DNA of 64,000 bases from Burkholderiales bacterium (GCA_038206915.1 JBBRAI010000001.1:36025-100024), one strand, 5' to 3'; positions 6,261 through 45,500 are shown, counted from the first letter of the stretch. The notes: generated by a model not told the origin, from the sequence alone. Program-made: numbers and translations.

Positions 6261-6263
6261 GTG

Positions 6264-10371: not shown

Positions 10372-10855
10372 CGCGACCTTCGGTTTCGACCGAGCTCACC
10401 AGAGCGAAATCGTTTGCGCTCCACAGTAGCGGACTCCAGCGCGGCGCGCCCTCCAGGCCGGACGCTTTGCGCACCAGCGTCACGTGCGTGACGAAGGGTT
10501 TGCGGTCATAGCGTATGCCGGCCGCATCGAGTCCCGCACGCAGGCCGGAGACCAGCGCGTTTAGCGCCGGCGGTTCTTCGCCCGCGCCGCACCAGAGGAC
10601 GCGATTGTGTTTCCAATAGCCCACCTGATCCAGCGCAAGTCGGATCGGGTCGAAGTGCACTTCCGCCGCGAGAGCGTTCAGCGTTGGAAGCAATGCTGTA
10701 TCGGTGGCGCCGAGGAAGGCCAGCGTAAGGTGGATGTTCTCGCGCCGCATCGCGCGGCCCCTGCCGGCCGCGAGCTTCGCCCACGCGGCGAGCTGCGCCT
10801 GCAGATCGGCATCGGGCCATAGCGCGAAGAACAATCTGAGGCTGGCGCTTTCCAT
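10328..10855 (-). CDS. thpR: RNA 2',3'-cyclic phosphodiesterase (2H family)
   Basis: 175 aa with two HxT motifs (HLTLAFLG and HVTLVR) and N-terminus LRLFFALWP. Confidence 0.85.
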
Positions 10856-10919
10856 GTGGACATCTCACGTAGCGCAGGCGAGGGCGCCTGCGCTACAAGA
10901 CACCTGCCGCAACACCCGC

Positions 10920-14085: not shown

Positions 14086-17000
14086 ATGACTGCCGACCCG
14101 ACGCGAACGCCGCACAAGCGCCGCTATACCCAGCTGCATGGCTCGGCCGATGCGCTGGCGCTCGCGCGCCTGGCGCAGCAGACCAAGCCGTTGATCGTGC
14201 TGTGCGCCTCGGCACTGGATGCGCAGCGCCTGCTGGAGGAAATTCCCTATTTCGCGCCAGGGCTCACGGTGAACCTGCTGCCGGACTGGGAAACGCTGCC
14301 CTATGACAGCTTCTCGCCGCACCACGACCTGATCTCCGAGCGCCTCGCCACGCTCTACGCAATCACGCGCGGCAGCTGCGACCTGACGCTGATCCCGGCG
14401 AGCACTGCGCTTTACCGCCTCGCGCCGCCGTCCTATCTCGCCGCCTATACCTTCTTTCTCAAGCAGGACGAAAAATTCAGCCTGCCGCAGCTGCGCGAAC
14501 AATTGACGCTCGCCGGCTACAGCCACGTCACCCAGGTGGTGGCGCCGGGGGAATACTGCGTGCGCGGCGGACTGATCGACCTGTTCCCGATGGGCAGCGC
14601 CCTGCCCTACCGCATCGACCTGCTCGACGAGGAGATCGAGTCGATCCGCACTTTCGACGTGGATACGCAGCGCACCATCTACAAGGTGAACGAAGTGCGC
14701 CTGCTGCCTGCGCGCGAATTTCCGCTGGACGAAGCCGGCAGGACGCGCTTTCGCGCGCGCTTTCGCGAAACCTTCGAGGGCGACCCCTCGCGCAGCAACA
14801 TCTACAAGGACGTGAGCAACGGCATCGCGCCGGCCGGCATCGAATACTACCTGCCGCTTTTCTTCGAGCACACCGCGACCATTTTCGACTACCTGCCCGC
14901 CCAAGCCACGCTGTGCCTGCACCGCGACGTCGCCGCGGGCATAGACGCGTTCTGGAAGGACACTCTGTCGCGCTATCAGCTGCTGCGCGGGGACCGCACG
15001 CAGCCGCTGCTCTCGCCGGTGGACATGTTCGTGCCGGCGGAGGAATTCTTCGTCGCCGCGAAAAACTACGCGCGCATCGACATCTCCGCGCCCGGGGAAG
15101 CCGGCGGCGCGCCCGGCGGTGAAATTGTCGCCACCGCGCTGCCGCCGCTCGCGGTCGAGCGCCGCGCCGCCGATCCGCTGACGCGGCTGAAGGCGTTCCT
15201 CGTCGGCACCGGCGCGCGCGTGCTGCTGCTCGCCGAATCCGCGGGCCGGCGCGAAACCATGAGTCAGTATCTGGCCGAATACGGCGTGCTGCCTGCGCCC
15301 TGCGCCAGCTACGCGGAGTTTCTCGCCTCCGGCGCGCGCTGCATGCTCGGCACGGCGCCGCTGTTCAACGGCTTCACGCTCGAAGCCGAAAATCTCTGCG
15401 TGGTCACCGAGGCCGAACTCTACGCCGGCACGGTGCGCAGCGGCCGCCGCGCAGAGACGCGCGCGACTTCGGTCGAGGGCATGGTGCGCGACCTGTCGGA
15501 GCTGCGCATCGGCGACCCGGTGGTGCATGCCCAGCATGGCATCGGCCGCTATCTCGGTTTGGTCAATCTCGACCTCGGCGAGGGCGAAACCGAATTCCTG
15601 CACCTGGAATATGCCGGACACGACAAGCTCTACGTGCCGGTGGCGCAGCTGCATCTGATCAGCCGCTACAGCGGCATGGCGCCGGAGCAGGCGCCGCTGC
15701 ACAAGCTGGGCAGCGGCGACTGGGATCGCGCCAAGAAGAAAGCCGCGGCGCAGATTCGCGACACCGCCGCCGAACTGCTCGAACTTTACGCGCGGCGCGC
15801 GGCGCGCGAAGGGCACAAGTTCGAAATCAAGCAGCACGACCTGGACGCGTTCTCCGAGGGTTTCGGATTCGAGGAGACGCCGGACCAGGCGGGGGCGATC
15901 CGCGCCGTGGTCGAGGACATGCGTTCGGGCAAGCCCATGGACCGCCTGATCTGCGGCGATGTCGGCTTCGGCAAGACCGAGGTCGCGCTGCGCGCCGCCT
16001 TCGTCGCGGTCTGCGGCGGCAAGCAGGTTGCCATCCTCACGCCGACCACGCTGCTGGCCGAGCAGCACTTCCAGACCTTCTCCGACCGCTTCGCGCAGAT
16101 CGCCGACGAGTGGCCGATCAAGGTCGCCCAGTTATCGCGCTTTCGCAGCGCGAAGGAGCAGACGCAGAGTGTGAAGGCCCTTGCCGACGGCTCGGTCGAC
16201 GTCGCCATCGGCACGCACAAGCTGCTGCAGCGCGGTATCAAGTTCGCACGCCTCGGGCTGGTGATCATCGACGAGGAGCATCGCTTCGGCGTGCGCCAGA
16301 AAGAAGTGCTGAAGGCGCTGCGCGCCGAAGTGGACGTGCTCACGCTCACCGCGACGCCGATTCCGCGCACCCTGGCGATGTCGCTCGAGGGCCTGCGCGA
16401 TTTCTCGGTGATCGCGACCGCGCCGCAGAAGCGCCTCGCGATCAAGACTTTCGTCAGCCGCGAAAGCGCCGGCGTGATCCGCGAAGCGGTGCTGCGCGAA
16501 CTCAAGCGCGGCGGGCAGATTTACTTCCTGCACAATGAAGTGCAGACCATAGAGAACATGCACGCCAAGCTCGCCAAGCTGGTACCCGAGGCGCGCATCG
16601 TGGTCGCGCACGGCCAGATGCGCGAGCGCGAGCTGGAGCGCGCGATGCGCGAATTCCACCAGCAGCGCTACAACCTGCTGCTTTGCACCACCATCATCGA
16701 GACCGGCATCGACATTCCGACCGCCAACACCATGCTGATCAACCGCGCCGATAAGTTCGGCCTGGCGCAGCTGCACCAGCTGCGCGGCCGCGTCGGGCGT
16801 TCGCACCACCAGGCCTACGCCTATCTGCTCACCCACGGCGAGGAAACGCTGTCGGCGCAGGCGAAGAAGCGCCTCGAGGCGATCCAGATGATGGACGAGC
16901 TCGGCGCGGGCTTCTTCCTCGCGATGCACGACCTGGAGATCCGCGGCGCGGGCGAAGTGCTGGGCGAATCGCAGTCCGGGGAAATGCAGGAAATCGGATT

Positions 17001-17568
17001 TAATCTCTATGCCGACATGCTCAACCACGCGGTGCGCTCGCTCAAGGCCGGGCGCGAGCCGGACCTGTCGGCGCCGCTGTCGATCACCACCGAAATCAAC
17101 CTGCACCTGCCGGCGCTGCTGCCAAACGACTATTGCAGCGACGTGCACGAGCGCCTGACGCTGTACAAGCGCCTCGCCAACTGCGATACCGCGGAGCAGC
17201 TCGACCGCATGCAGGAAGAGCTGATCGACCGCTTCGGCCCCGCGCCCGATGCGGCGCAGGCGCTGATCGAAACGCACCGCCTGCGCGTGGCCGCGCTCGC
17301 CCTGGGCGTGGCGCGCATCGACGCCAGCGGCGATGCGATTGCGCTGCAATTCATCGACAAGCCGCCGCTGGACGGCGCGCGCTTCATGCAGCTGCTGCAG
17401 CGCCAGCGCCACTGGAAACTGTCCGGCCCGAGCAAGCTGCGCGCGCAAACGCCGAGCGAAGGCCTGGCGCCGCGCGCGCGCGCAGTGAAGGAGTTGCTCA
17501 GGACGCTGCATTCGGCGCTGCCGCCAGTGCCGGCCGAAGCGGCACGCGCCGTAGCGGGTGCGGCATGA
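14086..17568 (+). CDS. mfd: transcription-repair coupling factor
   Basis: 1160 aa. GDVGFGKTEVALRAAF Walker A, the DEEHRFG box, and CarD-like and TRG motifs. Confidence 0.95.
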   Translation: MTADPTRTPHKRRYTQLHGSADALALARLAQQTKPLIVLCASALDAQRLLEEIPYFAPGLTVNLLPDWETLPYDSFSPHHDLISERLATLYAITRGSCDLTLIPASTALYRLAPPSYLAAYTFFLKQDEKFSLPQLREQLTLAGYSHVTQVVAPGEYCVRGGLIDLFPMGSALPYRIDLLDEEIESIRTFDVDTQRTIYKVNEVRLLPAREFPLDEAGRTRFRARFRETFEGDPSRSNIYKDVSNGIAPAGIEYYLPLFFEHTATIFDYLPAQATLCLHRDVAAGIDAFWKDTLSRYQLLRGDRTQPLLSPVDMFVPAEEFFVAAKNYARIDISAPGEAGGAPGGEIVATALPPLAVERRAADPLTRLKAFLVGTGARVLLLAESAGRRETMSQYLAEYGVLPAPCASYAEFLASGARCMLGTAPLFNGFTLEAENLCVVTEAELYAGTVRSGRRAETRATSVEGMVRDLSELRIGDPVVHAQHGIGRYLGLVNLDLGEGETEFLHLEYAGHDKLYVPVAQLHLISRYSGMAPEQAPLHKLGSGDWDRAKKKAAAQIRDTAAELLELYARRAAREGHKFEIKQHDLDAFSEGFGFEETPDQAGAIRAVVEDMRSGKPMDRLICGDVGFGKTEVALRAAFVAVCGGKQVAILTPTTLLAEQHFQTFSDRFAQIADEWPIKVAQLSRFRSAKEQTQSVKALADGSVDVAIGTHKLLQRGIKFARLGLVIIDEEHRFGVRQKEVLKALRAEVDVLTLTATPIPRTLAMSLEGLRDFSVIATAPQKRLAIKTFVSRESAGVIREAVLRELKRGGQIYFLHNEVQTIENMHAKLAKLVPEARIVVAHGQMRERELERAMREFHQQRYNLLLCTTIIETGIDIPTANTMLINRADKFGLAQLHQLRGRVGRSHHQAYAYLLTHGEETLSAQAKKRLEAIQMMDELGAGFFLAMHDLEIRGAGEVLGESQSGEMQEIGFNLYADMLNHAVRSLKAGREPDLSAPLSITTEINLHLPALLPNDYCSDVHERLTLYKRLANCDTAEQLDRMQEELIDRFGPAPDAAQALIETHRLRVAALALGVARIDASGDAIALQFIDKPPLDGARFMQLLQRQRHWKLSGPSKLRAQTPSEGLAPRARAVKELLRTLHSALPPVPAEAARAVAGAA

Positions 17569-18395
17569 TTCTCGTGATCCAGGGGGCCGCCCTCGCCGAC
17601 GCAGACGTGGGGCACCTGGCGGCATTGAGCGGCGCGTCGCGCACCGAGCGCCTGGGCAACTCGGCCTGCCGGCTTTACGGCGCGCGCCAGAATACGGAAA
17701 TCGCCGCCTACTGCACGCGTGCCAGATTGGACTTCGGCTTCGTGCCGGAGGCGCGCAGGCTCGCGGACATGCGCCTGCTCGCGATCGACATGGATTCCAC
17801 CCTGATCACCATCGAGTGCATCGACGAAGTCGCCGACCTCGCCGGGGTCAAGGCCGAGGTGTCGGCGATCACCGCCGCCGCGATGGCGGGAGAAATGGAC
17901 TATGCGCAAAGCCTGCAGCGCCGCGTCGCCCTGCTGCAGGGTGTGGATCAGCGCGCGCTGGCGCGCGTGTACGACGAGCGCCTGAGCCTGTCCCCCGGCG
18001 CCGAGTCCCTGCTCGCCGCGGCGCGCCGCGCCGGCATGAAGACGCTGCTGGTGTCGGGCGGCTTCAGTTTCTTTACCGAACGCCTGAAAGCGCGGCTGGG
18101 CCTGGACTACAGCATCTCGAACGAACTGGAGATCGCGGACGGCCGGCTCAGCGGCAGGGTGATCGGGCGCATCGTCGACGCGCAGGCGAAGGCGGCGAAA
18201 CTGCGCGTGCTACGCGACGAATTCGGCATCGCAAAGGCGGCGGTCATCGCCATAGGCGACGGCGCGAACGACCTGCCGATGATGGCCGAAGCCGGCGTGT
18301 CCATCGCATACCACGCCAAGGCGATGGCGCGAAACAAGGCCGACTATGCGCTGGATTACTGCGGCCTGGACGGGGTGTTGAACCTGTTCGCCTGA
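17565..18395 (+). CDS. serB: phosphoserine phosphatase
   Basis: Starts at MILVIQG, with an ATGA overlap on the mfd stop. HAD motifs IDMDSTLI, LVSGGF and GDGANDLPM. Confidence 0.9.
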   Translation: MILVIQGAALADADVGHLAALSGASRTERLGNSACRLYGARQNTEIAAYCTRARLDFGFVPEARRLADMRLLAIDMDSTLITIECIDEVADLAGVKAEVSAITAAAMAGEMDYAQSLQRRVALLQGVDQRALARVYDERLSLSPGAESLLAAARRAGMKTLLVSGGFSFFTERLKARLGLDYSISNELEIADGRLSGRVIGRIVDAQAKAAKLRVLRDEFGIAKAAVIAIGDGANDLPMMAEAGVSIAYHAKAMARNKADYALDYCGLDGVLNLFA

Positions 18396-18417
18396 ACGGC
18401 GTTGAAGGAGGCTGGCA

Positions 18418-18434
18418 AGGGGGCGGATCCCCCT
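18418..18434. terminator. GC hairpin between convergent serB and iscA (AGGGGG-cggat-CCCCCT)
   Basis: 6-bp G/C stem in the 51-bp gap between convergent genes. It belongs to the G5/C5 hairpin family also seen at 40371-40385 and 51241-51259. No U-tract. Confidence 0.35.
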
Positions 18435-18446
18435 GTCCGGCAAATA

Positions 18447-18770
18447 CTAGACGTTAAAGCTTTCGCCGCAGCCGCACTGGTCCTTCACGTTCGGATTGTT
18501 GAACTTGAAGCTTTCGTTCAGGCCTTCGCGCGCGAAATCGAGTTCCATGCCTTCCAGCAGCGGCAGGCTTTTCGGATCCACGATCAGCTTCACGCCATGG
18601 CATTCGAACATGACGTCATCCGGATTGACGCTATCGGCGTACTCCAGTTTGTAGGCGAAACCGGAACAGCCGCTGGTGCGCACACCCAAGCGCAATCCGA
18701 CACCCTTGCCGCGCTTGGCGATGTGGCTGGTGACGTGTCTGGCGGCTTTTTCAGTCAATGTGACGGGCAT
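18447..18770 (-). CDS. iscA: A-type iron-sulfur cluster carrier
   Basis: 107 aa, [16 protein letters not shown].. and C-terminal CGCGESFNV. Near-collinear with the recalled E. coli IscA. Confidence 0.88.
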
Positions 18771-18815
18771 CTCAACCTCGTGTAATTTCGTTTCCGCTTC
18801 GAACCTGCCAGCGCC

Positions 18816-19295
18816 TCAGACCGGGAGCGATATGACTTTTCGCGCGGCCGTGGTGCGCCGGTCCATGATCACGGCCACGTTGCCATCCTTCGCCTGCTGC
18901 TCGTTCACCAGGTCCTGCAGGGTGACGGAATTCAGGTACTCGTACAGCTTGTCGTTCAGCGTAGCCCACAGATTGTGGGTCATGCAGCGCTTGTCTTCCT
19001 GGCAGTTTTCCAGGCCGCCGCACTGCGTCGCGTCAAGTGGTTCGTCCACGGCGAGAATTATGTCGGCCACCGTCACCTTTTCCGTCGGTAGCGCCAGGTT
19101 GTAACCGCCGCCCGGGCCGCGCACGCTTTCGACCAGGTTGTGCCGGCGCAGCTTGCCGAAGAGTTGTTCGAGATAGGACAGCGAAATGCTTTGGCGCGCG
19201 CCGATGCCGGCCAGCGTTACCGGTCCGTGTTGGTGGCGCAGCGCCAGATCTAGCATGGCGGTTACCGCGAAGCGGCCTTTGGTCGTCAGTCTCAT
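18816..19295 (-). CDS. iscR: Rrf2-family Fe-S cluster regulator IscR
   Basis: Start trimmed to MRLTTKGRFAVTAMLDLAL. Cluster ligands are spaced C-x5-C-x5-C-x2-H (QCGGLENCQEDKRCMTH), exactly as in IscR. Confidence 0.9.
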   Translation of the reverse strand: MRLTTKGRFAVTAMLDLALRHQHGPVTLAGIGARQSISLSYLEQLFGKLRRHNLVESVRGPGGGYNLALPTEKVTVADIILAVDEPLDATQCGGLENCQEDKRCMTHNLWATLNDKLYEYLNSVTLQDLVNEQQAKDGNVAVIMDRRTTAARKVISLPV

Positions 19296-19313
19296 CGATT
19301 CGTCTCCGGCTGA

Positions 19314-19338
19314 ATACCCGATAAGGAGAGTCAAGTAT
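19314..19338. promoter_or_regulatory. IscR type-1-like box (weaker) overlapping the iscR leader
   Basis: atacccgataaggagagtcaagtat matches about 20/25 of the recalled consensus ATASYYGACTRWWWYAGTCRRSTAT. Confidence 0.4.
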
Positions 19339-19342
19339 AGCC

Positions 19343-19367
19343 AAACCCGACTGATTTGGTCAACTAT
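19343..19367. promoter_or_regulatory. IscR type-1-like box upstream of iscR (autoregulation)
   Basis: Minus-strand ATAGTTGACCAAATCAGTCGGGTTT matches about 23/25 of the type-1 consensus. It lies 48-72 nt upstream of the iscR start. Confidence 0.6.
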
Positions 19368-19380
19368 TAGCCGAAATCAA

Positions 19381-20139
19381 TCATTTATCCGCCGCGCGGC
19401 GCGGCCTGCCGGGCGCAAAACGATCCGCAACGGCCAAATCGTCTTCGGTGCGCAGCTTGAGCGATTCGATTTCCTGCTGCAGTTGTTCCAGGCGATGATC
19501 CTGTTCCATCGAGTGGTCGAGCAGGCCCTGCAGCGCCTTGGCGAATGGATCGTCGGTGGCTTTCGCGGTGACGGCATAGGCGGAAAAGCCCAATTTGGCC
19601 GCCTTTTCCTCGCGCGACTTGTCCTGCTCGTCGAGGATGAAGCGCGCCGGTATCCCGACCGCAGAGGCGCCCGGCGGGACGTCTTTCACCACCACGGCGT
19701 TGGAGCCGATTTTCGCCCCCTCGCCTACGATTATCGGGCCGAGGATCTTGGCGCCGGCGCCGACGACCACGCCGTTTCTGAGCGTCGGATGGCGCTTGCC
19801 CTTGTTCCAGGACGTGCCGCCGAGGGTCACGCCGTGATACAGCGTGACATCGTCGCCTATCTCGGCGGTCTCCCCGATGACCACGCCCATGCCGTGGTCG
19901 ATGAAGAAGCGCCGCCCAATGGTTGCGCCCGGATGGATCTCGATGCCGGTCAGCCAGCGGCCCATGTTCGAGATCCAACGACCCAGCCAGCGCAGGTTCA
20001 TGCGCCACAGCCAATTGGCGACGCGGTGAATGCGCAGCGCGTGAAACCCCGGGTAGCAGGTCAGGACTTCCCAGGTGGTGCGTGCCGCGGGGTCGCGGTC
20101 GAAGACGCTGGCTATATCTTCTCGGATGCGGTTGAACAT
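19381..20139 (-). CDS. cysE: serine O-acetyltransferase
   Basis: 252 aa. N-terminus [19 protein letters not shown], hexapeptide region [41 protein letters not shown]. Confidence 0.9.
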
Positions 20140-20283
20140 AAGCGTGCCTGGGAATTACCCAGTCTCCGGTACGATTTGGTGCAAATTCATTATTAATATT
20201 TATGATTAACTAGATTCACCAACATAATGTTTTAATGTGAATAAGTTGATACAAAAACCCTCCGACCTACGCTTTATCTTACT

Positions 20284-20308
20284 AATCCCTAGTGTTTTAG
20301 TCAAGTAT
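20284..20308. promoter_or_regulatory. possible IscR type-1-like box at the trmJ/cysE junction
   Basis: aatccctagtgttttagtcaagtat matches about 21/25 and shares the AGTCAAGTAT half-site with the iscR and sufB boxes. It overlaps the trmJ stop codon. Confidence 0.35.
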
Positions 20309-21023
20309 TTTTGTCGAAGGCCTTGAGCATGCCGCGCAGGATGTTGACCTCTTCCTGCTCCAGCCGGCTGCGCCCGAACAGGCGCCGCAGGCGTGGCATC
20401 AGGCGCCGCGGAATCGCCGGGTCGAGAAAGCCGCTTGCGACCAGGCTCTGTTCGAGATGGACGTAGAGATTCTCTATATCCTCGTGCCGCGCCGGCGCGA
20501 ACTCCGCGGCCGGCAGGAGCTCGGTTCCGAGCGCGGCCACGCGCACTTCATACGCCATCACCTGTACCGCCGCCGCCAGGTTCAGCGAGGAATAACCCGG
20601 GTCGGCGGGGATATGCGCCGCAGCGCTGCACTGCAGGATTTCGTCGTTGGTCAGGCCCGACATTTCGGTGCCGAACACCAGCGCGACCTCGCCCTCCCGC
20701 GCCGCCGCGATCAAAGGCTGCACCGCACTGCGCGCGTCGGCCGATGCATGGGCGAGCTCGCGCCGGCGCGCGCTGACGGCCAGCGCGTAGACCGTGCCCT
20801 GCAGCGCCTCGCCCAGGCTCGCGCACAGGCGCGCGCCGCGCAACAGGTCGGAGGCGCCGCTCGCCATGGCTTCGGCTTCCGCGTCGATCGGCTTTTTCGG
20901 CTCGACCAGATACAGCGCGCTGATGCCCATGGTCTTCATCGCGCGCGCCGCCGCGCCGATGTTGCCCGGATGCGACGTGCGCGACAGCACCACACGAATG
21001 CGCGACAGCAGCTCGGCGCTCAT
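20301..21023 (-). CDS. trmJ: SpoU/TrmH-class tRNA 2'-O-methyltransferase
   Basis: 240 aa, VLSRTSHPGNIGAAARAMKTMG, LVFGTEMSGLTN, SLNLAAAVQVMAYE. It holds the conserved position divergent from suhB. Confidence 0.8.
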   Translation of the reverse strand: MSAELLSRIRVVLSRTSHPGNIGAAARAMKTMGISALYLVEPKKPIDAEAEAMASGASDLLRGARLCASLGEALQGTVYALAVSARRRELAHASADARSAVQPLIAAAREGEVALVFGTEMSGLTNDEILQCSAAAHIPADPGYSSLNLAAAVQVMAYEVRVAALGTELLPAAEFAPARHEDIENLYVHLEQSLVASGFLDPAIPRRLMPRLRRLFGRSRLEQEEVNILRGMLKAFDKNT

Positions 21024-21076
21024 ATTAAAATCGACACTTCCGCGCAGTCCGCGAACACACGCAAAGACCCCATCCC

Positions 21077-21862
21077 ATGCACCCCATGCTCAATATCGCG
21101 GTGAAAGCCGCGCGGCGCGCCGGCGTCATCATCAACCGTGCGGCACAGGACCTGGACGCCCTGACCGTGTCGACCAAGCGCCACAATGATTTCGTCACCG
21201 AGGTCGACCAGGCGGCGGAACAGGCAGTGATCCAGATACTGCTGAAGGCGTTTCCGGACCACGCAATTCTGGCAGAGGAGTCCGGCGCGACCGGCAAGTC
21301 GGACTACGTCTGGATCATAGACCCGCTGGACGGCACCACTAATTTTATCCACGGTTTTCCCCAGTATTGCGTGTCGATCGGCCTGCAGCACAAAGGCATA
21401 TTGACCCAGGCGGTGATCTACGACCCCGGGCGCAACGAACTCTACACTGCCTCGCGCGGACACGGCGCCTATCTCAACGACCGGCGCATACGCGTGTCCA
21501 AGCGCAGGCAATTGGACGATGCGCTGATCGGCACCGGTTTTCCGTTCCGTGAAATGCAGAATATCGAGCGCTACGCACCCGCATTGATCCAGCTCATGGG
21601 GCAGACCGCGGGCGTGCGCCGCGCCGGTGCCGCCGCGCTCGATCTCGCCTATGTCGCGGCCGGCCGGCTCGACGGCTTCTGGGAAATGGGGCTGTCGCCC
21701 TGGGACATGGCCGCGGGCTGCCTGCTGATCCTCGAAGCCGGCGGCCTGGTAAGCGACTTCGACGGCGACGGCAATTACCTGAAGACCGGCAACGTCGTCA
21801 CCGGCACGCCCAGGGTATTTACGCCGCTGCTGCAGATCGTGGCCGCGCACCACAACAAGTAG
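21077..21862 (+). CDS. suhB: inositol monophosphatase family protein
   Basis: [16 protein letters not shown].., [22 protein letters not shown] motifs. Confidence 0.9.
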
Positions 21863-21868
21863 CCGCTG

Positions 21869-23899
21869 ATGCGACTGCTGCGCTCGCTGCAGGCATGGAT
21901 CGGCGGCGGTAGCGCCGCCGCGCTGGAGGCGGCGATCCGGCTGCACGAAAGCGGCGACCTCGCCGGCGCGCAGCGCTGCTACCGCGAAATCCTGCGGGTC
22001 GATGTGCGCGACGCCGACGCGACCCACTTGCTTGGGCTGATCGCGCACCAGCGCGGCGAGCACGCGCAGGCCGCCGCGCAGATCGGCGCGGCGATTGCGC
22101 TCAGGGGCGACAAGGCGATCTATCACTACAACCTCGGCAACGCGCTCGCCGCGCTCGACCGGCCGCAGGAGGCCGCGCAGAGCTTTCGCGCGGCGATGCG
22201 GCTCGATCCGGCGCACGCCGCCACGCGCGCCAACCTCGCCCTCGCGCTGACCCAGTCCGGCCGCCATCAGGAGGCGGCCGTCGAATTGCGCCAGCTGTTG
22301 AAACTGAGCCCGTCGCCAGCGGCGCGCAACGCGCTTGCGAGCGCTCTGATCCGCTGCGCCGACGCCGATCCCGCGGCAAGCGGCGCCTACGCCGAGGCGG
22401 CCGCACTGCTGCGCGAGGCGTGGCGCGACGCCGACGATCCGGCCGAGGCCAGGCTCGCCCTCGCCTACTGCCTGCAGCAAGACAGGCACTGGAGCGAAGC
22501 CGCGGAGCACTACGCGGCCGTGCTTGCGCTGAAACCGGCCGACGCCGGCGCGCACAACAAGCTCGCTAACTGCTACAACCAGCTCGGCCGCATGGGCGAG
22601 GCGATCCTGCACTACCGCGAAACCTACCGGCTCGCGCCGGATTTTCCCGAGGCGCTGGCGAGCGTGCTCGCCTGCCTGAACTACGACCCGGACTGCAGCC
22701 CGGAGCAATCGGCAGCCGAGCACCGGCACTGGGCCGAGCGCGTGGCGGCACCGCATTACCCCAAGTCCGCGCGCTTCGACAACGAACGCGATCCGCAGCG
22801 GCGCCTGCGCGTAGGCTATGTCTCACCGGATCTGCGCCGCCATCCGGTGAGCGCCATATTCGAACCCATTCTCGCCGCGCACGACCGCAGCCGCATCGAG
22901 GCGACCTGTTACTACAATTTCGCCGGCGAAGATGCGGTGACGCTGCGGCTGAAACACCAAGCCAAACGCTGGCGGCCGGTCGCCGGCCTGTCCGACGCCG
23001 CGCTGTGCGAGCAGATCCGCGCCGATGGCATCGACATCCTGGTCGACCTCGCCGGCCACACCACGCACAACCGCCTGCTCGCCTTTGCACGCAAGCCCGC
23101 GCCGGTGCAGGTGAGCTGGCTCGGCTACTTCAACAGCACCGGGCTCGCCACGATGGACTGTTTCATCAGCGACCCGTGGTCTTCGCCGGCGGGCCAGGAG
23201 CGCTACTATGTCGAGCGGCTGCTGCGCCTGCCAGACACGCGCTTTTGCTATCTGCCGCCGGAATACATGCCCGATGTCGGCCCGCTTCCCGCCGCGAGCG
23301 CGGGCCGGGTCACCTTCGGCTGCCTCAACAACCTGGCCAAGCTCAACGAAAGCGTGCTGGCGCTGTGGGGGAAAGTGCTGCACGCGGTGCCGGATTCGAG
23401 GCTGCTGGTGCAGGCCGCGGCGCTGGACGACGCGCCCAACCGCGAGCGCTTCGGCGCGTTGTGCGCGCGCCACGGCATCGCGCCCCAGCGACTGGAACTG
23501 CGCGGCTTCGTCCCCATCGATCAGTCTCCGGCAAGCTATGCCGGCATCGACATCGCGCTCGACCCGTTCCCGTTCTGCGGCGGCATGACCAGCCTGGAAG
23601 CGCTGTGGCTGGGCGTCCCGGTCCTCACGCTGCCCGGCGAAACCATCGCCAGCCGTCAGAGCGCGAGCATGCTGATGAACCTCGACCTTCCCGGGCTGAT
23701 CGCGCAGGACGCCGGACAGTACGTCGATAGCGCGGCGCTGCTTGCGCGCGATCTGCCGCGCCTGGCCGCGCTGCGCGCCGGCTTGCGCACGCGTTTCGCC
23801 GCCTCGCCGCTGATGGATTACGCCGGCTTCGCGCGCGCGCTCGAATCGGCTTACCGCGACATGTGGATCAACTGGCTTGCCGACCAGCCCGTCGGCTGA
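21869..23899 (+). CDS. TPR-repeat protein with C-terminal O-GlcNAc-transferase (SPINDLY/GT41)-like domain
   Basis: 676 aa. The N-terminal half has TPR-like repeats (AxxxYxxAL patterns). The C-terminal half (RVGYVSPDLRRHPV.., GCLNNLAKLN, LDPFPFCGGMTSLEALWLGVPVLT) is typical of bacterial GT41-like proteins. Confidence 0.75.
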   Translation: MRLLRSLQAWIGGGSAAALEAAIRLHESGDLAGAQRCYREILRVDVRDADATHLLGLIAHQRGEHAQAAAQIGAAIALRGDKAIYHYNLGNALAALDRPQEAAQSFRAAMRLDPAHAATRANLALALTQSGRHQEAAVELRQLLKLSPSPAARNALASALIRCADADPAASGAYAEAAALLREAWRDADDPAEARLALAYCLQQDRHWSEAAEHYAAVLALKPADAGAHNKLANCYNQLGRMGEAILHYRETYRLAPDFPEALASVLACLNYDPDCSPEQSAAEHRHWAERVAAPHYPKSARFDNERDPQRRLRVGYVSPDLRRHPVSAIFEPILAAHDRSRIEATCYYNFAGEDAVTLRLKHQAKRWRPVAGLSDAALCEQIRADGIDILVDLAGHTTHNRLLAFARKPAPVQVSWLGYFNSTGLATMDCFISDPWSSPAGQERYYVERLLRLPDTRFCYLPPEYMPDVGPLPAASAGRVTFGCLNNLAKLNESVLALWGKVLHAVPDSRLLVQAAALDDAPNRERFGALCARHGIAPQRLELRGFVPIDQSPASYAGIDIALDPFPFCGGMTSLEALWLGVPVLTLPGETIASRQSASMLMNLDLPGLIAQDAGQYVDSAALLARDLPRLAALRAGLRTRFAASPLMDYAGFARALESAYRDMWINWLADQPVG

Positions 23900-23902
23900 T
23901 GC

Positions 23903-23927
23903 AAAGTTGACCAATTAAGTCAAGTAT
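23903..23927. promoter_or_regulatory. IscR type-1-like box 1 upstream of sufB
   Basis: aaagttgaccaattaagtcaagtat matches about 22/25 of ATASYYGACTRWWWYAGTCRRSTAT. Confidence 0.6.
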
Positions 23928-23930
23928 TGT

Positions 23931-23955
23931 ATAGTTGACAAAATTACTCGTGTAT
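23931..23955. promoter_or_regulatory. IscR type-1-like box 2 upstream of sufB
   Basis: atagttgacaaaattactcgtgtat matches about 22/25 and closely resembles the recalled E. coli iscR-promoter site ATAGTTGACCAATTTACTCGGGAAT. It is 3 nt from box 1. Confidence 0.6.
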
Positions 23956-24090
23956 TCCTTGTGTAAAGCATATACATCTGATATCTAATGATTTTCCCGT
24001 TGAAATCCAGCATCGAAGCCGTGGCGCGGGCCGCGAAGGCAGTCACGGCCTACCGTTTCCAGTATATTCGACAAGGCTGGTGAATCCTCT

Positions 24091-26314
<2,224 letters not shown>

Positions 26315-26318
<4 letters not shown>

Positions 26319-27628
26319 ATTCCGTCTCGACCAAGGCTTATCTCGACAGCCTGCTTGAGGGCCGCCCCGAAGCGAGCCCGCTCAGCTGGCTGAACGAGCT
26401 GCGCGCGCACGCGGTCGACCGGGTCGGCGCGCTCACCGTGCCGACCACACGCGACGAGGACTGGCGCTTCACCGACATCTCGCCGCTGACCAAGCTCAGT
26501 TTCCAGCCGGCGCGGGACGCGCAGGCCATCGCGGCCGACGCGCTGCAGCCGTGGGCCCTGAACGAAGCCGCTGCGCGCCTGGTATTCGTCGACGGCATTT
26601 ACGCGCCGCAGCACTCGTTCAACAACACCGGGCTCACGGTGGAAAATTTCGCCGCGGGCCTGGAGCGACACGGCGCCGCCGTGCAGGCGCAGCTCGGCCG
26701 GCACGCCGCATTCGAGCACAATGCGTTCGCCGCGCTCAACACCGCGTTCCTGCACGACGGGGCGCTGATCCTGGTGCCGCGCGGGCTCGCCCCTGCCGCG
26801 CCGGTGCATCTGCTGTTCATCACGACACGCAAGCACGCGGCCAACTACCCGCGCTGCCTGGTGATCGCCGAGCCCGGCAGCGCGCTGACGCTGGTGGAAG
26901 ATTATGTATCGCTGCAGGACGAGGCCTATTTCACCAACGCGGTCACCGAAATCGCGCTCGCCGGCGACGCGCAGCTGCATCATGTGCGGGTGCAGCGCGA
27001 GGGCGCCGAGGCTTTCCATATCGCCAATTGCGCGGTGTCGCTGGCGCCTTCGAGCCGCTACCACTCGGTGAGCGTCGCGCTGGGCGCGCGCATCTCGCGC
27101 TTCAACCTGGGCGTGCTGCTCGGCGCCGAAGGCGCGCAGTGCAGCATCGACGGGCTCGCCCTGATCGGCGGCAAGCAGCTGGCCGACACGCATACGCTGA
27201 TCGACCACGCCCAGCCGCAATGCACCAGCCGGCAATTGCACAAATGCATCGTCGACGGCGCCGCGCACGCGGTGTTCAACGGCAACGTCATGGTGCGCGC
27301 CGGTGCGCAGCGCACCGATTCCGCGCAATCGAGCCGCAATCTCCTCTTGAGCGGCAAAGCGCGCGTCGACACCAAGCCGCAGCTGGAGATTTTCGCCGAC
27401 GACGTGAAATGCGCGCACGGCGCGACCGTGGGCCAGCTCGACCTGGACGAGGTGTTCTACCTCAAGAGCCGCGGACTGTCCGAAACCGCCGCGCGCAATC
27501 TGCTGACTTACGCCTTCGGCGCCGAGGTCATCGAGCGCATCCCGGTCGCCACGCTCAGGCAGCGGCTGGAACAGACGGTCATGGCGCGCACCCAGAGCGC
27601 CAAAGCGGTCGCGGGGAGCGCGCCATGA
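26315..27628 (+). CDS. sufD: Fe-S cluster assembly protein SufD
   Basis: ATGA overlap with sufC. 437 aa, with a C-terminal beta-helix region similar to SufB (..[42 protein letters not shown]..). Confidence 0.9.
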
Positions 27629-28884
27629 CCGCGCGGCCGAGCGCGCTGCAGCCGGTGATCGCGCCGCTGCTGGACCTCGAGCGCATCCGCGCCGATTTTC
27701 CGATCCTCGGCCTCAGGCCGGGCGGCAAGCCGCTGGTCTATCTGGACAACGCGGCCTCGAGCCAGATGCCGCAGCAGGTGATCGACCGCCTGGTGCGCTA
27801 CCAGACCAGCCAGCACGCCAACATCCACCGCGCGGTGCATACGCTGTCCGAGATCGCCACCGCGGAATACGAGGCGGCGCGGCGCAAGCTGGCGCGCTTC
27901 ATCAATGCGCGCGAAGAGCGCGAAGTGATTTTCACCAGCGGCACCACCGATGCCATCAACCTGGTCATGCACGGCTACGGCCGCAAGTTCATCGGCGCCG
28001 GCGACGAAATCATCCTCACCACGCTGGAGCACCATTCGAATATCGTGCCCTGGCAGATGCTGGCCGAGGAGAAAGGCGCGAAGATCCGCGTCGTGCCCGT
28101 CAACGACGCGGGAGAACTCCTGATCGAGGACTACGAGCGGCTGTTCAGCGCGCGCACCAGGCTGGTCGGGGTGATGCATGTCTCGAACGCGCTCGGCAGC
28201 ATCAATCCGGTCAAGCAGATGGCTGCGTTTGCGCATGCGCGCGGCGTGCCGGTGCTGGTGGACGGCGCACAGGCGGTGCCGCACATGCGCGTCGACGTGC
28301 AGGACCTCGATTGCGATTTCTACGCGTTTTCCGGGCACAAGCTGTGCGGCCCGACCGGCATCGGCATCCTCTACGGCAAGGCGGCGCTGCTCGAGCGCAT
28401 GCAGCCGTTCAAGGGCGGCGGCGACATGATCCTGTCGGTCACGTTCGAGAAGACCACCTACAACGTAATCCCGCAGAAGTTCGAAGCGGGCACGCCGCCC
28501 ATTGCGCAAGCTATCGGCCTGGGCGCGGCGGTCGACTATCTTGGCGCGATAGGCATGGACGCGATCGCGGCGCACGAGCGCGCGCTGCTCGACTATGCCA
28601 CCGCGAAACTCGCGCGCATGGCGGGCGTGCGCCTCATCGGCACCGCCGCCGAGAAGGCTGCGGTGCTGTCGTTCGCGCTCGAAGGCGTGCACCCGCACGA
28701 CGTCGGCACGCTGCTCAACGAGGACGGGATCGCGGTGCGCACCGGCCATCATTGTGCGCAGCCGGTGATGCAGCGTTTCAAGGTGCCGGCGACCACGCGC
28801 GCCTCCTTCGCCTTCTACAACACGGTGGCGGAGATCGACGCGCTCGCCGCGGGCATCGCCAACGTACAAAAGGTCTTCCGCTGA
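27625..28884 (+). CDS. sufS: cysteine desulfurase SufS (group II)
   Basis: ATGA overlap with sufD. FPILG..VYLDNAASSQ, PLP-Lys region FSGHKLCGPTGIG, catalytic loop RTGHHCAQP. Confidence 0.95.
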   Translation: MTARPSALQPVIAPLLDLERIRADFPILGLRPGGKPLVYLDNAASSQMPQQVIDRLVRYQTSQHANIHRAVHTLSEIATAEYEAARRKLARFINAREEREVIFTSGTTDAINLVMHGYGRKFIGAGDEIILTTLEHHSNIVPWQMLAEEKGAKIRVVPVNDAGELLIEDYERLFSARTRLVGVMHVSNALGSINPVKQMAAFAHARGVPVLVDGAQAVPHMRVDVQDLDCDFYAFSGHKLCGPTGIGILYGKAALLERMQPFKGGGDMILSVTFEKTTYNVIPQKFEAGTPPIAQAIGLGAAVDYLGAIGMDAIAAHERALLDYATAKLARMAGVRLIGTAAEKAAVLSFALEGVHPHDVGTLLNEDGIAVRTGHHCAQPVMQRFKVPATTRASFAFYNTVAEIDALAAGIANVQKVFR

Positions 28885-29372
28885 TGACCGACCCGAAATC
28901 GCTGTACCAGGAAGTCATACTCGACCACAACCGCAAGCCGCGCAATTTCGGCACGCTGGAGCAGGCGAGCCATCACGCCAAAGGCCACAATCCGCTGTGC
29001 GGCGACCATCTAAGCCTGGCGCTGAACCTGGACGGGGAGCGCATTTCGGCCATCGCGTTCGAGGGCGAGTCCTGCGCCATCTGCAAGGCGTCGGCATCGA
29101 TGATGACGGCCAACGTCAAGGGCAAGACGACGCAGGAGGCCGAAACCATGGTGCAGGAGTTCCGCGACATGGCGACCGGCCAGCTCGACACCGAGAAGCA
29201 GGAGCACCATCTGGGCCGGCTAACCGTATTCGCCGGCGTGCGCGACCTGCCGACGCGCGTCAAATGCGCGATCCTGCCCTGGCACACACTGCATGCCGCG
29301 CTGCATTCGGTCGCGGACACCTCGACCGAATCCGACAACGATCCGATGCACGCACCCATCGGCGATGCCTGA
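28884..29372 (+). CDS. sufU: SufU-type (IscU-like, Zn-dependent) sulfur acceptor
   Basis: Overlaps the sufS stop by 1 nt (TGATG). YQEVILDHNRKPRNFG, NPLCGD, ESCAICKASASMM, RVKCAILPW. Confidence 0.85.
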   Translation: MTDPKSLYQEVILDHNRKPRNFGTLEQASHHAKGHNPLCGDHLSLALNLDGERISAIAFEGESCAICKASASMMTANVKGKTTQEAETMVQEFRDMATGQLDTEKQEHHLGRLTVFAGVRDLPTRVKCAILPWHTLHAALHSVADTSTESDNDPMHAPIGDA

Positions 29373-29383
29373 ACTGATTTGCC

Positions 29384-29947
29384 ATGCCTAAAATTGCCGA
29401 AATCGAAGACACGCCGAACCCGAACGCGAAGAAGTTCATCCTCAAGGAACCGCTGAGCTGGGGCATCACGCATTCCTACGACACCGCCGCGCAGGCGGAG
29501 GACGATCTGCTCGCCGCGTCGATATTCGATATCGAGCACGTGACCAACGTGTTCTACGTCGATCGCTGGCTAACGGTGACGCAGGATGGCGCCGCCGACT
29601 GGCAGCAATTGCTGCGCCGGGTCGCCGACCGGGTGCGCGCCGCGCCTGCGGCAAGCGAACAATCCGCCCAGCTCGCCTCCGCTGCGGCTGCTACCCAACT
29701 CGCCGACCTGAGCCCCGACGACCAGCAGCGCCTGTACATGATCAACGGCCTGCTCGACGAGCAGATCCGCCCCTACCTGCAGGGCGACGGCGGCGACCTG
29801 TTTGTGCTCGGCCTCGAAGGTAACAAGCTGACAGTGCACTATCAGGGCGCCTGCGGCAGTTGCCCGAGTTCCCTGTCGGGCACGCTGGTCGGCATCGAAC
29901 AGCTGCTGCGTACGATAGAGCCCGATATCGAAGTGTTGGCGGTATAG
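29384..29947 (+). CDS. Nfu-type Fe-S carrier (Nfu_N domain plus NifU C-terminal CxxC domain)
   Basis: N-terminus IEDTPNPNAKKFIL.. (Nfu_N-like). C-terminus IRPYLQGDGGDLFVLG..YQGACGSCPSS (NifU-C). An Ala/Gln-rich linker joins them. Confidence 0.8.
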   Translation: MPKIAEIEDTPNPNAKKFILKEPLSWGITHSYDTAAQAEDDLLAASIFDIEHVTNVFYVDRWLTVTQDGAADWQQLLRRVADRVRAAPAASEQSAQLASAAAATQLADLSPDDQQRLYMINGLLDEQIRPYLQGDGGDLFVLGLEGNKLTVHYQGACGSCPSSLSGTLVGIEQLLRTIEPDIEVLAV

Positions 29948-30054: not shown

Positions 30055-30483
30055 TCAATGCGCCAGGCCCGCGAGGATCTGACGCACCTCCTGTTCCAGG
30101 CCGGTGGACGGAATGACCACCGCCTTTCTGCCGCCTACCTCGGTCGAGAATCGCGGGGTTTCGCCGGCGCGCTCATAAGCCACGCCGAGCTTGTTGATCA
30201 GCTTGCCGGTCTCGACCGGCGACAGCTTGTTCAGGCTTGCCAATTCCTTGAGGCTGCTCACCTTGCCATCGTGGATCCAGGCGATGCCGAAACGCTTCGG
30301 CGGTTTGCCGAGGAACACGAAGGCCTCGCGCTCGCCGGGCACCACCTCCAGTGGGTCGGACGCCTGGCGCGCCAGCTCTTCGAGCGGCGCCTTTACCGCG
30401 CTTAACCCGGCGTATGCCGCATTGTCTTCGGGCAGCGGCGGGTAACCCTTGTCGCCGCCAAACATCTTGTCGAATAATCCCAT
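30055..30483 (-). CDS. hypothetical protein (142 aa, orphan)
   Basis: Start trimmed to MGLFDKMFGG.. with a strong AGAGGAGG SD 5 nt upstream. High third-position GC. No family recognised. Confidence 0.55.
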   Translation of the reverse strand: MGLFDKMFGGDKGYPPLPEDNAAYAGLSAVKAPLEELARQASDPLEVVPGEREAFVFLGKPPKRFGIAWIHDGKVSSLKELASLNKLSPVETGKLINKLGVAYERAGETPRFSTEVGGRKAVVIPSTGLEQEVRQILAGLAH

Positions 30484-30672
30484 GCTGACCTCCTCTGGTT
30501 GGGGCAAAAACGCAGCCTGATGGCAGGGCTTCCCGGGCGCATGCCGCGGCCGTAGACCCGGATGCAACGCCAGTCGATGCGCTTTCTTGGGGGAGTCTGG
30601 TCAATGGGATTGTTGCGCGATCGACGTACCAGCAGACGAACTGGCCAGATTACGCTTCATAGAATACTATTG

Positions 30673-30942
30673 TTACAAACAATAGTCCAATCGGGTGCGC
30701 ATGCCGCGTTTGGCGAGCCGCGCGGCGATGGCTTCGATTTCGCCGGCGATAGCCGCAAGCGCTTGCTCGCGCGGCATTTGCCATGGCATATAGACCACGT
30801 CGATATCGACCGACAGGCGCGGCATGTCGCGCACGAAGAGGTTGATGGCGGTGCCGCCCTTCATCGCGAAGATGTCATTGGCGAAGACGTCCGGCGCGGC
30901 GGCCAGCAGCAGGCGCACGGCATCAGCGTAGACCTTATCCAT
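30673..30942 (-). pseudogene. truncated nucleotidyltransferase AbiEii/AbiGii-family toxin (N-terminal 89 aa only)
   Basis: ..FAMKGGTAINLFVRDMPRLSVDIDVVY.. is the N-terminal NTase motif of ~250-300-aa AbiEii toxins. It overlaps the abiEi stop by 8 nt. Its stop codon lies inside a 9-bp perfect palindrome at 30666-30686. Confidence 0.65.
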
Positions 30943-31690
30943 GCGGTTTCAGACTCAGTAAAGTGCCGTCTTTCAAGCGGCTCATCCAGCGCTTGTCGCT
31001 GCCGACCGGCAGCGTGTACTGCTGCTGAAGTTCGGCGACGTCCACCACCTTTGTCTCGCGCGCCCAGGTCAGGAAAAGCCGCACCGTCTTGACGCTAGTG
31101 CAACAGGCAAGCAGGCGGCCGAACATCTCCTTGCGCGGATTGCTCAAACCATCGAACAGATTGCGCGCTTCTTCCAGGCTCTGATGCGTGCCCACTTCGT
31201 ACAGCAACTCGAGCAGCGCGCGCTCGGTCACCGACACGCTCAAGCCCTCGGTCACGCCGGGGGGCGTGGCCAGGGTCTTTGCGGCCAGCGCTTCGTCCGG
31301 CCAATCGAAAAGCCGGGCCGACACGTAACGTGCGGGGAAGCGCGTTGTGAACCAAGCGGGCAGCACGAAGCGCACATCACCCCAGAGGACCCACTGCTCG
31401 CGCGTGGCCAGATTGTGGCGCACGCCCTGTAAAGCGAGTGCGCTCTTGCCGGCTACGTGCAGGCCGGTCACGCGGCTTTGCAGGAACTTGATCGCGCCGT
31501 GCGCACTCAGCCCGTCGGCAGGAAAGGCGTACACGCCCTGCGCCAGCCGGACCAGCCAACCCGTCGCGGCGTAGTGGGCCGCCAGCGTCGAGGAGACGCC
31601 CAGGCGCGCGAGCTCGCCCACGTCGAATGGCGCCCCGCGCGGAAGGCTGGTCTGGAGCTGCTTGATTAGAGAATATCTTGAAGTTCCCAT
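30935..31690 (-). CDS. type IV toxin-antitoxin AbiEi-family antitoxin/transcriptional regulator
   Basis: 251 aa. N-terminal wHTH-like FDVGELARLGVSSTLAAHYAATGWLVRLAQGVYAF. Operon arrangement with the AbiEii fragment. Confidence 0.7.
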   Translation of the reverse strand: MGTSRYSLIKQLQTSLPRGAPFDVGELARLGVSSTLAAHYAATGWLVRLAQGVYAFPADGLSAHGAIKFLQSRVTGLHVAGKSALALQGVRHNLATREQWVLWGDVRFVLPAWFTTRFPARYVSARLFDWPDEALAAKTLATPPGVTEGLSVSVTERALLELLYEVGTHQSLEEARNLFDGLSNPRKEMFGRLLACCTSVKTVRLFLTWARETKVVDVAELQQQYTLPVGSDKRWMSRLKDGTLLSLKPHG

Positions 31691-31875
31691 AATGATTGAA
31701 TATTACGGCATTTTCTAATCACATTCAATCTTATTGATTAAATGTTACATGTATATTATTATATAGCTATAATTTAATAACCATATCTAATCAGAAGGTA
31801 ATTGACGCCAGAATCCCCAGATTTTTATGTATTTTACGGTATTTAATCCACGTTCTATGCTGTATTATACATTTA

Positions 31876-32202
31876 ATGAAGTCAAAGCTCCACGAGACTA
31901 TTCGAGCGCGACGGCTTGCCTTGGGCCTGTCGCAAATCGAGGTTGCGCGCCGAAGCGGTATTCAGCAGCGGCAGGTGTCGCTGTTCGAGCGCGGAGGAGA
32001 TGTAACGCTATCCACGCTCTTGAAGCTGGCCCAGGCGCTAAACATGGAACTGCTACCGATTCCACGCGAGGACAGCGCAAAGGTCGCGGCCGTAATTAAA
32101 GTCCAGGCCAAACGCGCGCCGGCCTCTTCTGCCGCTTCGTCGCCGCCTTCCCTGCTTGACCGCTATCAGGTAAAAGAGGACGAGGAGCCGTCAGATGGCT
32201 GA
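31876..32202 (+). CDS. hipB: XRE-family HTH antitoxin (HipB-like)
   Basis: 108 aa, IRARRLALGLSQIEVARRSGIQQRQVSLFERG HTH. It overlaps the HipA-like gene by 8 nt. Confidence 0.75.
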   Translation: MKSKLHETIRARRLALGLSQIEVARRSGIQQRQVSLFERGGDVTLSTLLKLAQALNMELLPIPREDSAKVAAVIKVQAKRAPASSAASSPPSLLDRYQVKEDEEPSDG

Positions 32203-45476: not shown

Positions 45477-45500
45477 ACGTCTGGAAATGAGCGCTGGCAG

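Follow-up and report, generated by a model that had tools for sequence, protein, structure and literature searches.

In Escherichia coli, apo-IscR activates sufABCDSE from a type-2 site, with Fur and OxyR as further regulators. Type-1 sites are bound by IscR solely in its [2Fe-2S] form, which represses isc (PMC3899308). Most bacteria hold a single iron-sulfur (Fe-S) system, usually SUF, and the SufBCDS(T)U modules of Proteobacteria, including some in Pseudomonas, are likely to be horizontal acquisitions (PMC11559095). In Betaproteobacteria iscRS lies within an isc operon, as in E. coli; in Alphaproteobacteria such as Caulobacter crescentus and Rhodobacter sphaeroides, iscRS and suf form one operon that is governed by IscR and apparently makes up the single Fe-S system (PMC11475020). 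Here we describe a locus at 18447-29947 of a 64-kb stretch of DNA (hereafter the window; GCA_038206915.1, JBBRAI010000001.1:36025-100024; G+C about 64%) from an uncultured betaproteobacterium of the GTDB order Burkholderiales. An iscR-iscA pair lies on one side of suhB and a sufBCDS-sufU-nfu cluster on the other. We consider it probable that the two form a hybrid Fe-S biogenesis system, built by gene loss from two systems that were once complete.

The original prediction for this DNA, made from the sequence alone, was that SUF had replaced ISC as the housekeeping pathway, with IscR retained as its sensor. This is supported in part, by the deletions seen against related genomes, by type-1 IscR boxes on the sufB promoter and by purifying selection. 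It has to be refined in two respects. The SUF module's own IscR paralogue and its SufA have also been deleted, and control appears to work through repression, with holo-IscR on type-1 sites, and not through activation from a type-2 site by apo-IscR.

Gene losses on the two sides of suhB

The gene calls behind the prediction hold. The trmJ-cysE-iscR context with divergent suhB is recognizable in the window and is seen directly in betaproteobacterial loci, iscR is followed by iscA and then by convergent serB, and model scores and coordinates (Table 1) place sufBCDS-sufU-nfu past suhB and a TPR/OGT-like gene. Also borne out was the claim that the locus lacks iscS, iscU, hscBA and fdx: neither tblastn nor Pfam scans of open reading frames (ORFs) found iscS, iscU, hscB, hscA, fdx or iscX within the 64 kb. 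With E. coli IscS, IscU, HscB, HscA, Fdx, IscX and SufE as tblastn queries, the only matches were SufS, 27% identical to IscS, and SufU. There was no credible match in the window to HscB, HscA or Fdx (best E-value 0.08 or worse) and none in the 64 kb to SufE, and the Pfam scans of the remaining window ORFs revealed no ISC component. Since the spacers that flank iscA measure just 45 bp and, on the serB side, 51 bp, nothing is hidden inside iscR-iscA-serB. The A-type carrier IscA is the sole ISC biosynthetic gene product kept in the window, IscS/IscU and HscB/HscA/Fdx being missing from the 64 kb, while SUF has its scaffold and ATPase components SufB, SufC and SufD, and SufS with a dedicated acceptor, SufU.

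For the wider context, GTDB species genomes were scanned with IscR, and 80 loci, mostly betaproteobacterial, were retrieved. iscR-iscSUA-hscBA-fdx-iscX is present in nearly all of those that are long enough, and trmJ-cysE stands upstream in about half of the 80, usually with divergent suhB. In a few (L033, L037 and L061) serB and mfd are convergent past iscX, which is the frame of the window with the ISC core still inside. When metagenomes were scanned with the TPR/GT41 protein, itself poorly conserved, closer kin came to light at around 82% DNA identity; the relatives used to map the deletions are around 82-86% identical. L084 has a complete iscRSUA-hscBA-fdx-iscX at the locus, its TPR gene being followed by cyclic di-GMP signalling genes with no suf. 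L083 has the TPR gene, a gene for an IscR paralogue (iscR2, its product 62% identical to the window IscR), a gene for a SufA-like carrier and sufBCD. Four NCBI metagenome-assembled genomes (MAGs) of the clade show the canonical full locus, and one of them, L094, has in addition an iscR2-like gene beside suhB. The comparison of synteny that had been proposed as a check on the prediction therefore finds kin that keep full ISC at the same locus, because of which we attribute the state of the window to deletion and not to some other ancestral layout.

The extent of the losses can be read from alignments with these kin. When compared by blastn with L084, the window lacks 5175-6862 of that locus, comprising iscS and iscU, and has 32 unmatched bp instead; further on, homology to L084 ends exactly at the iscA stop codon, with everything from hscB to iscX missing. 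Compared in the same way with L083, it lacks 4219-5067, comprising iscR2 and sufA, an 849-bp deletion with 87 bp in its place. By this comparison the window is best described as having undergone three clean deletions, of iscSU, of hscBA-fdx-iscX and of iscR2-sufA. Recognizable fragments of iscS, iscU, hscB, iscR2 or sufA were not found at any of the three junctions.

The closest GTDB genome, L002, a groundwater 'Betaproteobacteria' MAG with IscR, SufB and Mfd respectively 84%, 93% and 88% identical to those of the window, is in a different condition. It holds iscR-iscS-iscU as well as iscR2-sufA-sufBC; hscBA-fdx is gone. At 10080-10320 it has an iscA pseudogene of around 31 conserved codons followed by six unrelated codons and a stop, and of serB just a 3' remnant, the last 20 or so codons. 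The hscBA-fdx region and most of serB thus appear to have been deleted. Unless there is a problem with the assembly of the MAG, L002 would show an independent decay of the same locus.

The junctions on the ISC side of the window have been recovered more than once. A Logan contig of 1,554 bp, independently assembled from SRR19962014, is 100% identical to 18256-19809 of the window and spans cysE, iscR, iscA and the end of serB. In L088 (SRR26298340), whose IscA is 91% identical to that of the window, iscR again comes directly before iscA, the spacer between them being identical at 43 of 48 nt, and the iscA-to-serB junction is the same. Given an identical independent contig and a diverged homologue with the same junctions, those of cysE-iscR-iscA-serB are no assembly artefact; this support covers the ISC side, with the suf-side junction lying outside it. 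To judge from the two sequences, the reduced locus is an inheritance of at least two diverged genomes.

Two further arrangements were seen among the retrieved loci. In L060, from MAG Pseudomonadota bacterium KLAP73, a stand-alone iscR-iscA pair at 10001-10875 is followed by convergent lysS-prfB. The context is an unrelated one, and no copy of suhB, trmJ, cysE or suf lies within 10 kb of the pair. Units of just iscR and iscA may thus occur in other lineages too. Separately, Accumulibacter/Rhodocyclaceae loci have an extra class-V aminotransferase gene between iscR and iscS, its product around 40% identical to IscS (the loci with this gene before iscS are L007, L008, L026, L027, L039, L041, L047, L049, L056, L070 and L078). 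In the suf-type operons of L043, L066 and L080 the same kind of class-V aminotransferase gene stands between iscR and sufA.

The retained IscR and IscA and the type-1 boxes

The prediction had read an intact set of cluster ligands in IscR. C92, C98, C104 and H107, in the pattern C-x5-C-x5-C-x2-H, can indeed be read directly from the translation, and they occupy invariant columns in an alignment with relatives and with E. coli IscR. Across IscR1, IscR2 and E. coli IscR there is no variation in the recognition helix (ISLSYLEQLFGKLRR), the wing (VRGPGGGY) or the ligands. Because of this, the surviving IscR is plausibly able to occupy the former boxes of IscR2. It is predicted to bind a [2Fe-2S] cluster and, depending on it, DNA.

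The retained pair are, by comparison with both kinds of paralogue, clearly ISC-type orthologues. IscR is 89% identical to its counterpart in L084 but 60-62% identical to the SUF-type copies (iscR2), and it does not pass the model of the Xanthomonas-type SUF regulator, TIGR02944 (71.9 bits vs 110.65). Similarly, IscA is 84% identical to that of L084, which has full ISC, and 53-55% identical to the SufA-like protein of L002 and L083. The ratio of nonsynonymous to synonymous substitution rates (dN/dS) for iscA is 0.12 against L084. Between the window and L088, at a dS of 0.19-0.27, it is 0.24 for iscA and 0.10 for iscR. Since these last two genomes both have the reduced locus, the low ratios show iscR and iscA to have been under purifying selection since the reduction.

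IscR sites were sought with the type-1 consensus, which was defined in E. coli, confirmed in PMC3899308 and here applied to a betaproteobacterial window. At up to three mismatches there are three matches in 64 kb, against 0.00 expected from shuffles. One, box A of iscR (19343-19367, two mismatches), overlaps the -35 hexamer of the iscR promoter, TTGACC-18-TATACT, and so provides the type-1 site on its own promoter that autoregulation of iscR would use; a weaker box B (19314-19338, five mismatches) begins at the -10 hexamer. The other two, at 23903-23927 and 23931-23955 with three mismatches each, are in tandem before suf, where they overlap the -35, the 17-nt spacer and the -10 of TTGACC-17-TATAGT. 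Upstream of cysE a box with four mismatches (20284-20308) overlaps a putative sigma-70-like promoter, TTGACT-17-TAAGAT. A promoter scan gave the iscR and suf promoters as the two best sigma-70-like promoters of the region, exactly on the boxes. At all three promoters box A covers the -35 and the spacer, and at iscR and suf box B starts from the -10. From this geometry repression by occlusion is predicted, as at sites A and B of Pseudomonas aeruginosa (PMC3899308).

The motif is highly specific in this group. When matches with up to four mismatches are counted over 1.33 Mb of related loci, almost all lie just upstream of iscR and cysE. The suf promoter of the window aligns with the iscR2-sufA-sufB promoters of L002 and L083, to which it is homologous, and also with iscR promoters, namely those of L043, L080 and the window itself. 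The tandem type-1 architecture that the sufB promoter shares with the iscR promoter would tie SUF expression to IscR.

Other kinds of control over suf were also considered. A type-2 IscR box was not matched in the window at up to three mismatches, and so not upstream of suf, nor was a Fur box found in the window with the consensus sequences applied here, and E. coli-style control of suf was rejected accordingly. A structured leader or riboswitch before sufB was rejected too, the fold of the 136-nt leader having a z-score of +0.76, no better than shuffled sequence; an Rfam scan of the window returned only tRNA-Leu.

The type-1-like box upstream of cysE is not peculiar to the window. It recurs in around 18 of the 80 loci (for example L007, L026, L043, L055-L057, L059, L062 and L073), some 800-900 bp upstream of iscR. 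Cysteine supply, by way of serine acetyltransferase, may accordingly be part of the IscR regulon in this betaproteobacterial group.

Gene map and the rest of the window

The features of the locus are collected in Table 1. Starts and stops were checked by translation, and genes were identified with curated NCBIfam and Pfam models by comparing bit scores with the model cut-offs. All the Fe-S genes are above the curated NCBIfam cut-offs, and Nfu is above the Pfam gathering scores.

Table 1. Genes, spacers and promoters of the isc-suf region of the window
Feature	Coordinates	Strand	Evidence or remark
mfd	14086-17568	+	points at iscA together with serB
serB, phosphoserine phosphatase	17565-18395	+	TIGR00338, 224 bits vs 144
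iscA, ISC-type A-type Fe-S carrier	18447-18770	-	TIGR02011, 168 bits vs 150.6
iscR-iscA spacer, 45 bp	18771-18815	-	junction from the iscS-iscU deletion
iscR, [2Fe-2S]-type Rrf2 regulator	18816-19295	-	TIGR02010, 215.2 bits vs 207.55
iscR promoter with boxes A and B	19314-19367	-	motif scan, promoter scan, alignment
cysE, serine O-acetyltransferase, upstream of iscR	19381-20139	-	TIGR01172, 257 bits vs 211
putative cysE promoter and type-1-like IscR box	20276-20308	-	motif and promoter scans
trmJ, tRNA 2'-O-methyltransferase, conserved context gene	20301-21023	-	TIGR00050, 200 bits vs 167
suhB, inositol monophosphatase family, divergent to trmJ	21077-21862	+	NF008027, 309 bits, below cut-off of 332
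TPR and GT41 (OGT-like) glycosyltransferase	21869-23899	+	Pfam Glyco_transf_41, 3.8e-51, plus TPR repeats
suf promoter with two tandem type-1 IscR boxes	23903-23955	+	motif and promoter scans
87-bp stretch in place of relatives' iscR2 and sufA	23995-24081	+	blastn vs L083
sufB	24091-25527	+	NF008773, 902 bits vs 717
sufC, ATPase	25524-26318	+	TIGR01978, 350 bits vs 213
sufD	26315-27628	+	TIGR01981, 295 bits vs 222
sufS, group II cysteine desulfurase	27625-28884	+	TIGR01979, 582 bits vs 475; SGHK and RTGHHCA motifs in translation
sufU, SufS sulfur-transfer partner in place of SufE	28884-29372	+	TIGR01994, 161 bits vs 92.5; Pfam NifU_N
nfu, late-acting Fe-S carrier, last gene of the operon	29384-29947	+	Pfam PF08712 (Nfu_N) and PF01106 (NifU C-terminal)

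The suf genes are tightly packed and translationally coupled. sufB and sufC, sufC and sufD, and sufD and sufS each overlap by 4 nt and sufS and sufU by 1 nt, with a gap of 11 nt between sufU and nfu. With one strong promoter upstream, sufB-C-D-S-U-nfu has the organization of a single operon, which would be co-transcribed. nfu comes after sufU in L043 and L080 likewise. Between the TPR/GT41 gene and sufB there are 191 bp. We considered that gene as a possible component of suf but ruled it out, for it adjoins suhB in relatives without neighbouring suf (L084, L033 and L068); going by these loci it is part of the ancestral context and not of the suf operon. The call of suhB, for which no model is passed at its own cut-off, is made at the level of the family only, although its position is conserved. 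serB, which is convergent to iscA and lies beyond iscX in relatives, shows where the former isc operon came to an end.

Some other parts of the window deserve mention. Directly downstream of nfu and convergent with it is an ORF of around 142-170 aa (30055-30567, minus strand) with coding-like codon bias, which has no Pfam or NCBIfam match. A toxin-antitoxin islet (30673-33448) lies between nfu and mutS. Here, a gene for an AbiEi antitoxin (30935-31690) stands beside an ORF of 89 aa whose match is confined to the N-terminal third of AbiEii and which is probably a truncated toxin; a helix-turn-helix (HipB-like) gene at 31876-32202 is followed by a HipA kinase gene at 32195-33448. Further on, 42234-49702 holds an arn-like cluster for lipid A aminoarabinose modification, comprising genes for an ArnT-like protein (PMT and Arnt_C), a small EamA-like protein, a DegT aminotransferase, a GT2 glycosyltransferase, a formyltransferase, an epimerase/dehydratase and a polysaccharide deacetylase.

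Near the start of the window, a 98-aa ORF (2837-3133, minus strand), probably the fragment of a gene, matches only the first 60 or so of the 472 positions of a Na/sulfate symporter model. It adjoins around 1.4 kb of lower G+C (3130-4500) containing small ORFs only, among which 4067-4249 is CsbD-family-like and 4307-4465 resembles a small membrane protein, both read by eye in the translated sequence. At 4516-5184 (minus strand) a cytochrome c7-type multihaem domain is fused, unusually, to a BON domain, and a stand-alone hemerythrin gene is found near by, at 7242-7664 (plus strand).

The proposed hybrid system, its alternatives and its known counterparts

The simplest history of the hybrid is as follows. 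The ancestor would have had suhB divergent from trmJ-cysE-iscR-iscSUA-hscBA-fdx-iscX, with serB convergent beyond. A SUF module, iscR2-sufA-sufBCDS-sufU-nfu, would have arrived beyond suhB and the TPR/GT41 gene. ISC would then have decayed, independently in L002, and the lineage of the window would have dropped one copy for each redundant function. This would leave a single set, with IscR as sensor, IscA as carrier, SufS-SufU as desulfurase pair, SufBC2D as scaffold and Nfu as another carrier. Sulfur would be mobilized by SufS-SufU and clusters assembled on SufBC2D, to be delivered by Nfu and by the retained IscA, which would act downstream of SufBCD; SUF would be the sole or housekeeping machinery. 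These roles are proposed on account of the established functions of the families and of the interchangeability of A-type carriers, a property that Vinella et al. 2009 are said to have described.

As regards control, when there is enough Fe-S, SUF would load [2Fe-2S] on IscR and the holo-protein would act as a repressor of suf and iscR-iscA, and probably of cysE. Once demand increases, or clusters suffer destruction, IscR in its apo form would leave the type-1 sites, so that suf, iscR-iscA and cysE would be derepressed. SUF would in this way come under negative feedback of the E. coli isc type, with a sign opposite to that of E. coli suf control.

We are also inclined, if only slightly, towards a more specific history, a reciprocal-loss swap that followed the arrival of a complete SUF module, with an IscR paralogue and SufA of its own, next to a complete ISC operon. 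The ISC sensor and carrier would have been kept, the ISC core and the SUF sensor and carrier discarded, and SUF placed under the logic of holo-IscR repression. Other combinations found in relatives would fit as intermediates, namely full ISC, full ISC with an iscR2-like gene by suhB, and iscRSU with truncated iscA and SUF; the order of these states was drawn up without a species tree.

Four points count against the hybrid reading. The part inspected is 64 kb out of a contig of 162,865 bp, so that another isc cluster, or a desulfurase of the NifS/IscS type, may be located elsewhere. IscR binding and the direction of regulation rest on the E. coli consensus, from which the boxes depart by 2-5 mismatches. 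In RNA-seq of a Caulobacter iscR mutant most isc-suf genes were without significant change, with promoter expression up threefold (PMC11475020). Finally, the gain of SUF before the loss of ISC is an argument of parsimony from a handful of contigs, with no species tree.

Among the alternatives the one that survives best, although we think it improbable, is a simple rearrangement, in which iscS-iscU-hscBA-fdx has moved elsewhere and ISC is still the housekeeping system, with SUF for accessory use under stress as in E. coli. The limit of the view to a 64-kb window favours it, as does the coexistence of ISC and SUF in the clade, where L002 has iscRSU and suf and L094 has full ISC with the iscR2-like gene by suhB. 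It would, however, need two separate clean excisions at the usual locus of ISC that spared the iscA between them, a pattern that loss fits better than the transposition of non-adjacent blocks, and the parallel loss of the redundant iscR2 and sufA points to streamlining to a single copy per function. The alternative is lowered further by a search for HscB homologues with HscB of the nearest full-ISC relative. We opened four NCBI-sourced matches, 81-86% identical, and all four stand in canonical loci of other genomes, with iscA before them and an iscR of their own; no relocated iscSU-hscBA-fdx block was found among these four contexts.

It is considerably less probable that iscR-iscA is a decaying remnant, mere debris next to a suf operon under some other control, with the boxes as functionless leftovers. 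The truncated iscA of L002 demonstrates that ISC genes of the clade can be caught in mid-decay. In the window, by contrast, both ORFs are intact with all the ligand residues present, dN/dS between the two genomes with the reduced locus is 0.10-0.24, and promoter and boxes alike are conserved and the -35/-10 hexamers good, while the alternative control sites looked for in the window (Fur and type-2 boxes) were not found. An artefact of assembly or binning, in which iscR was confused with iscR2 or iscA with sufA, is scarcely credible: the source is probably a MAG and the paralogue pairs of relatives are around 66-74% identical in DNA, but the independent Logan assembly and the diverged second sample have the same ISC-side junctions, these fall in intergenic spacers outside the paralogous genes, and iscR and iscA are 84-89% identical to L084 as against 53-62% to the SUF-type copies.

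The hybrid reading matters because the choice and control of Fe-S machinery shapes tolerance of oxidative stress and of iron limitation. The passage from one Fe-S system to another is rarely visible, and here its possible steps can be compared across kin at a single locus. The presence of IscR and IscA with SufBCDSU and Nfu supports the idea that machineries can exchange their A-type carriers and IscR-type sensors, and the idea that a regulator can take over the promoter of a lost paralogue. It also leads to a prediction, that suf here would be repressed by holo-IscR at type-1 sites, opposite in sign to the E. coli paradigm.

When compared with known systems, the locus shares with iscRSUA-hscBA-fdx-iscX of E. 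coli and Pseudomonas its flanks, suhB divergent from trmJ-cysE-iscR, and an orthologous IscR with the same ligands and recognition helix. Its tandem type-1 boxes overlap the promoter as sites A and B of P. aeruginosa do (PMC3899308). It differs in the absence of iscS, iscU, hscBA, fdx and iscX from the window, and in having the same box architecture on a suf promoter as well. With E. coli suf it has homologous SufB, SufC, SufD and SufS in common, SufB passing the enterobacterial-type model, and the linkage of suf to Fe-S status through IscR. Unlike there, the boxes are of type 1 and overlap the core promoter, so that holo-IscR is predicted to repress suf and apo-IscR is not predicted to activate it; SufU replaces SufE and sufA is absent from the operon. 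The SufS-SufU relay, in place of SufS-SufE, is as in SUF of Terrabacteria (for example sufCDSUB of Bacillus), from which the window differs in its order, sufBCDSU and then nfu, in the absence of sufT and in its IscR boxes.

The nearest parallel in regulation is the alphaproteobacterial iscRS-suf, where IscR likewise regulates machinery of the SUF type that is apparently the sole Fe-S system. In the window, however, iscR and suf are separate units, around 4.8 kb apart and on opposite strands, and iscR is followed by iscA with no IscS-like gene, an ISC-type IscA being kept and SufU and Nfu present. The single-operon arrangement does occur among our loci, in L043 and L080, from Betaproteobacteria or Burkholderiales, which have cysE-iscR-(NifS-like)-sufA-sufBCDS-sufU-nfu. 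L066, with iscR, a NifS-like gene and a sufA-like gene at the end of its contig, is probably arranged in the same way. Control of SUF by IscR is thus already known from alphaproteobacterial iscRS-suf, and there is no new component or mechanism here. What is particular to the window is the split architecture, the combination of an ISC regulator and carrier with a SUF core, and the type-1 boxes on a suf promoter that has lost its own regulator, along with relatives that have other combinations of genes, possibly intermediate states, at the same locus.

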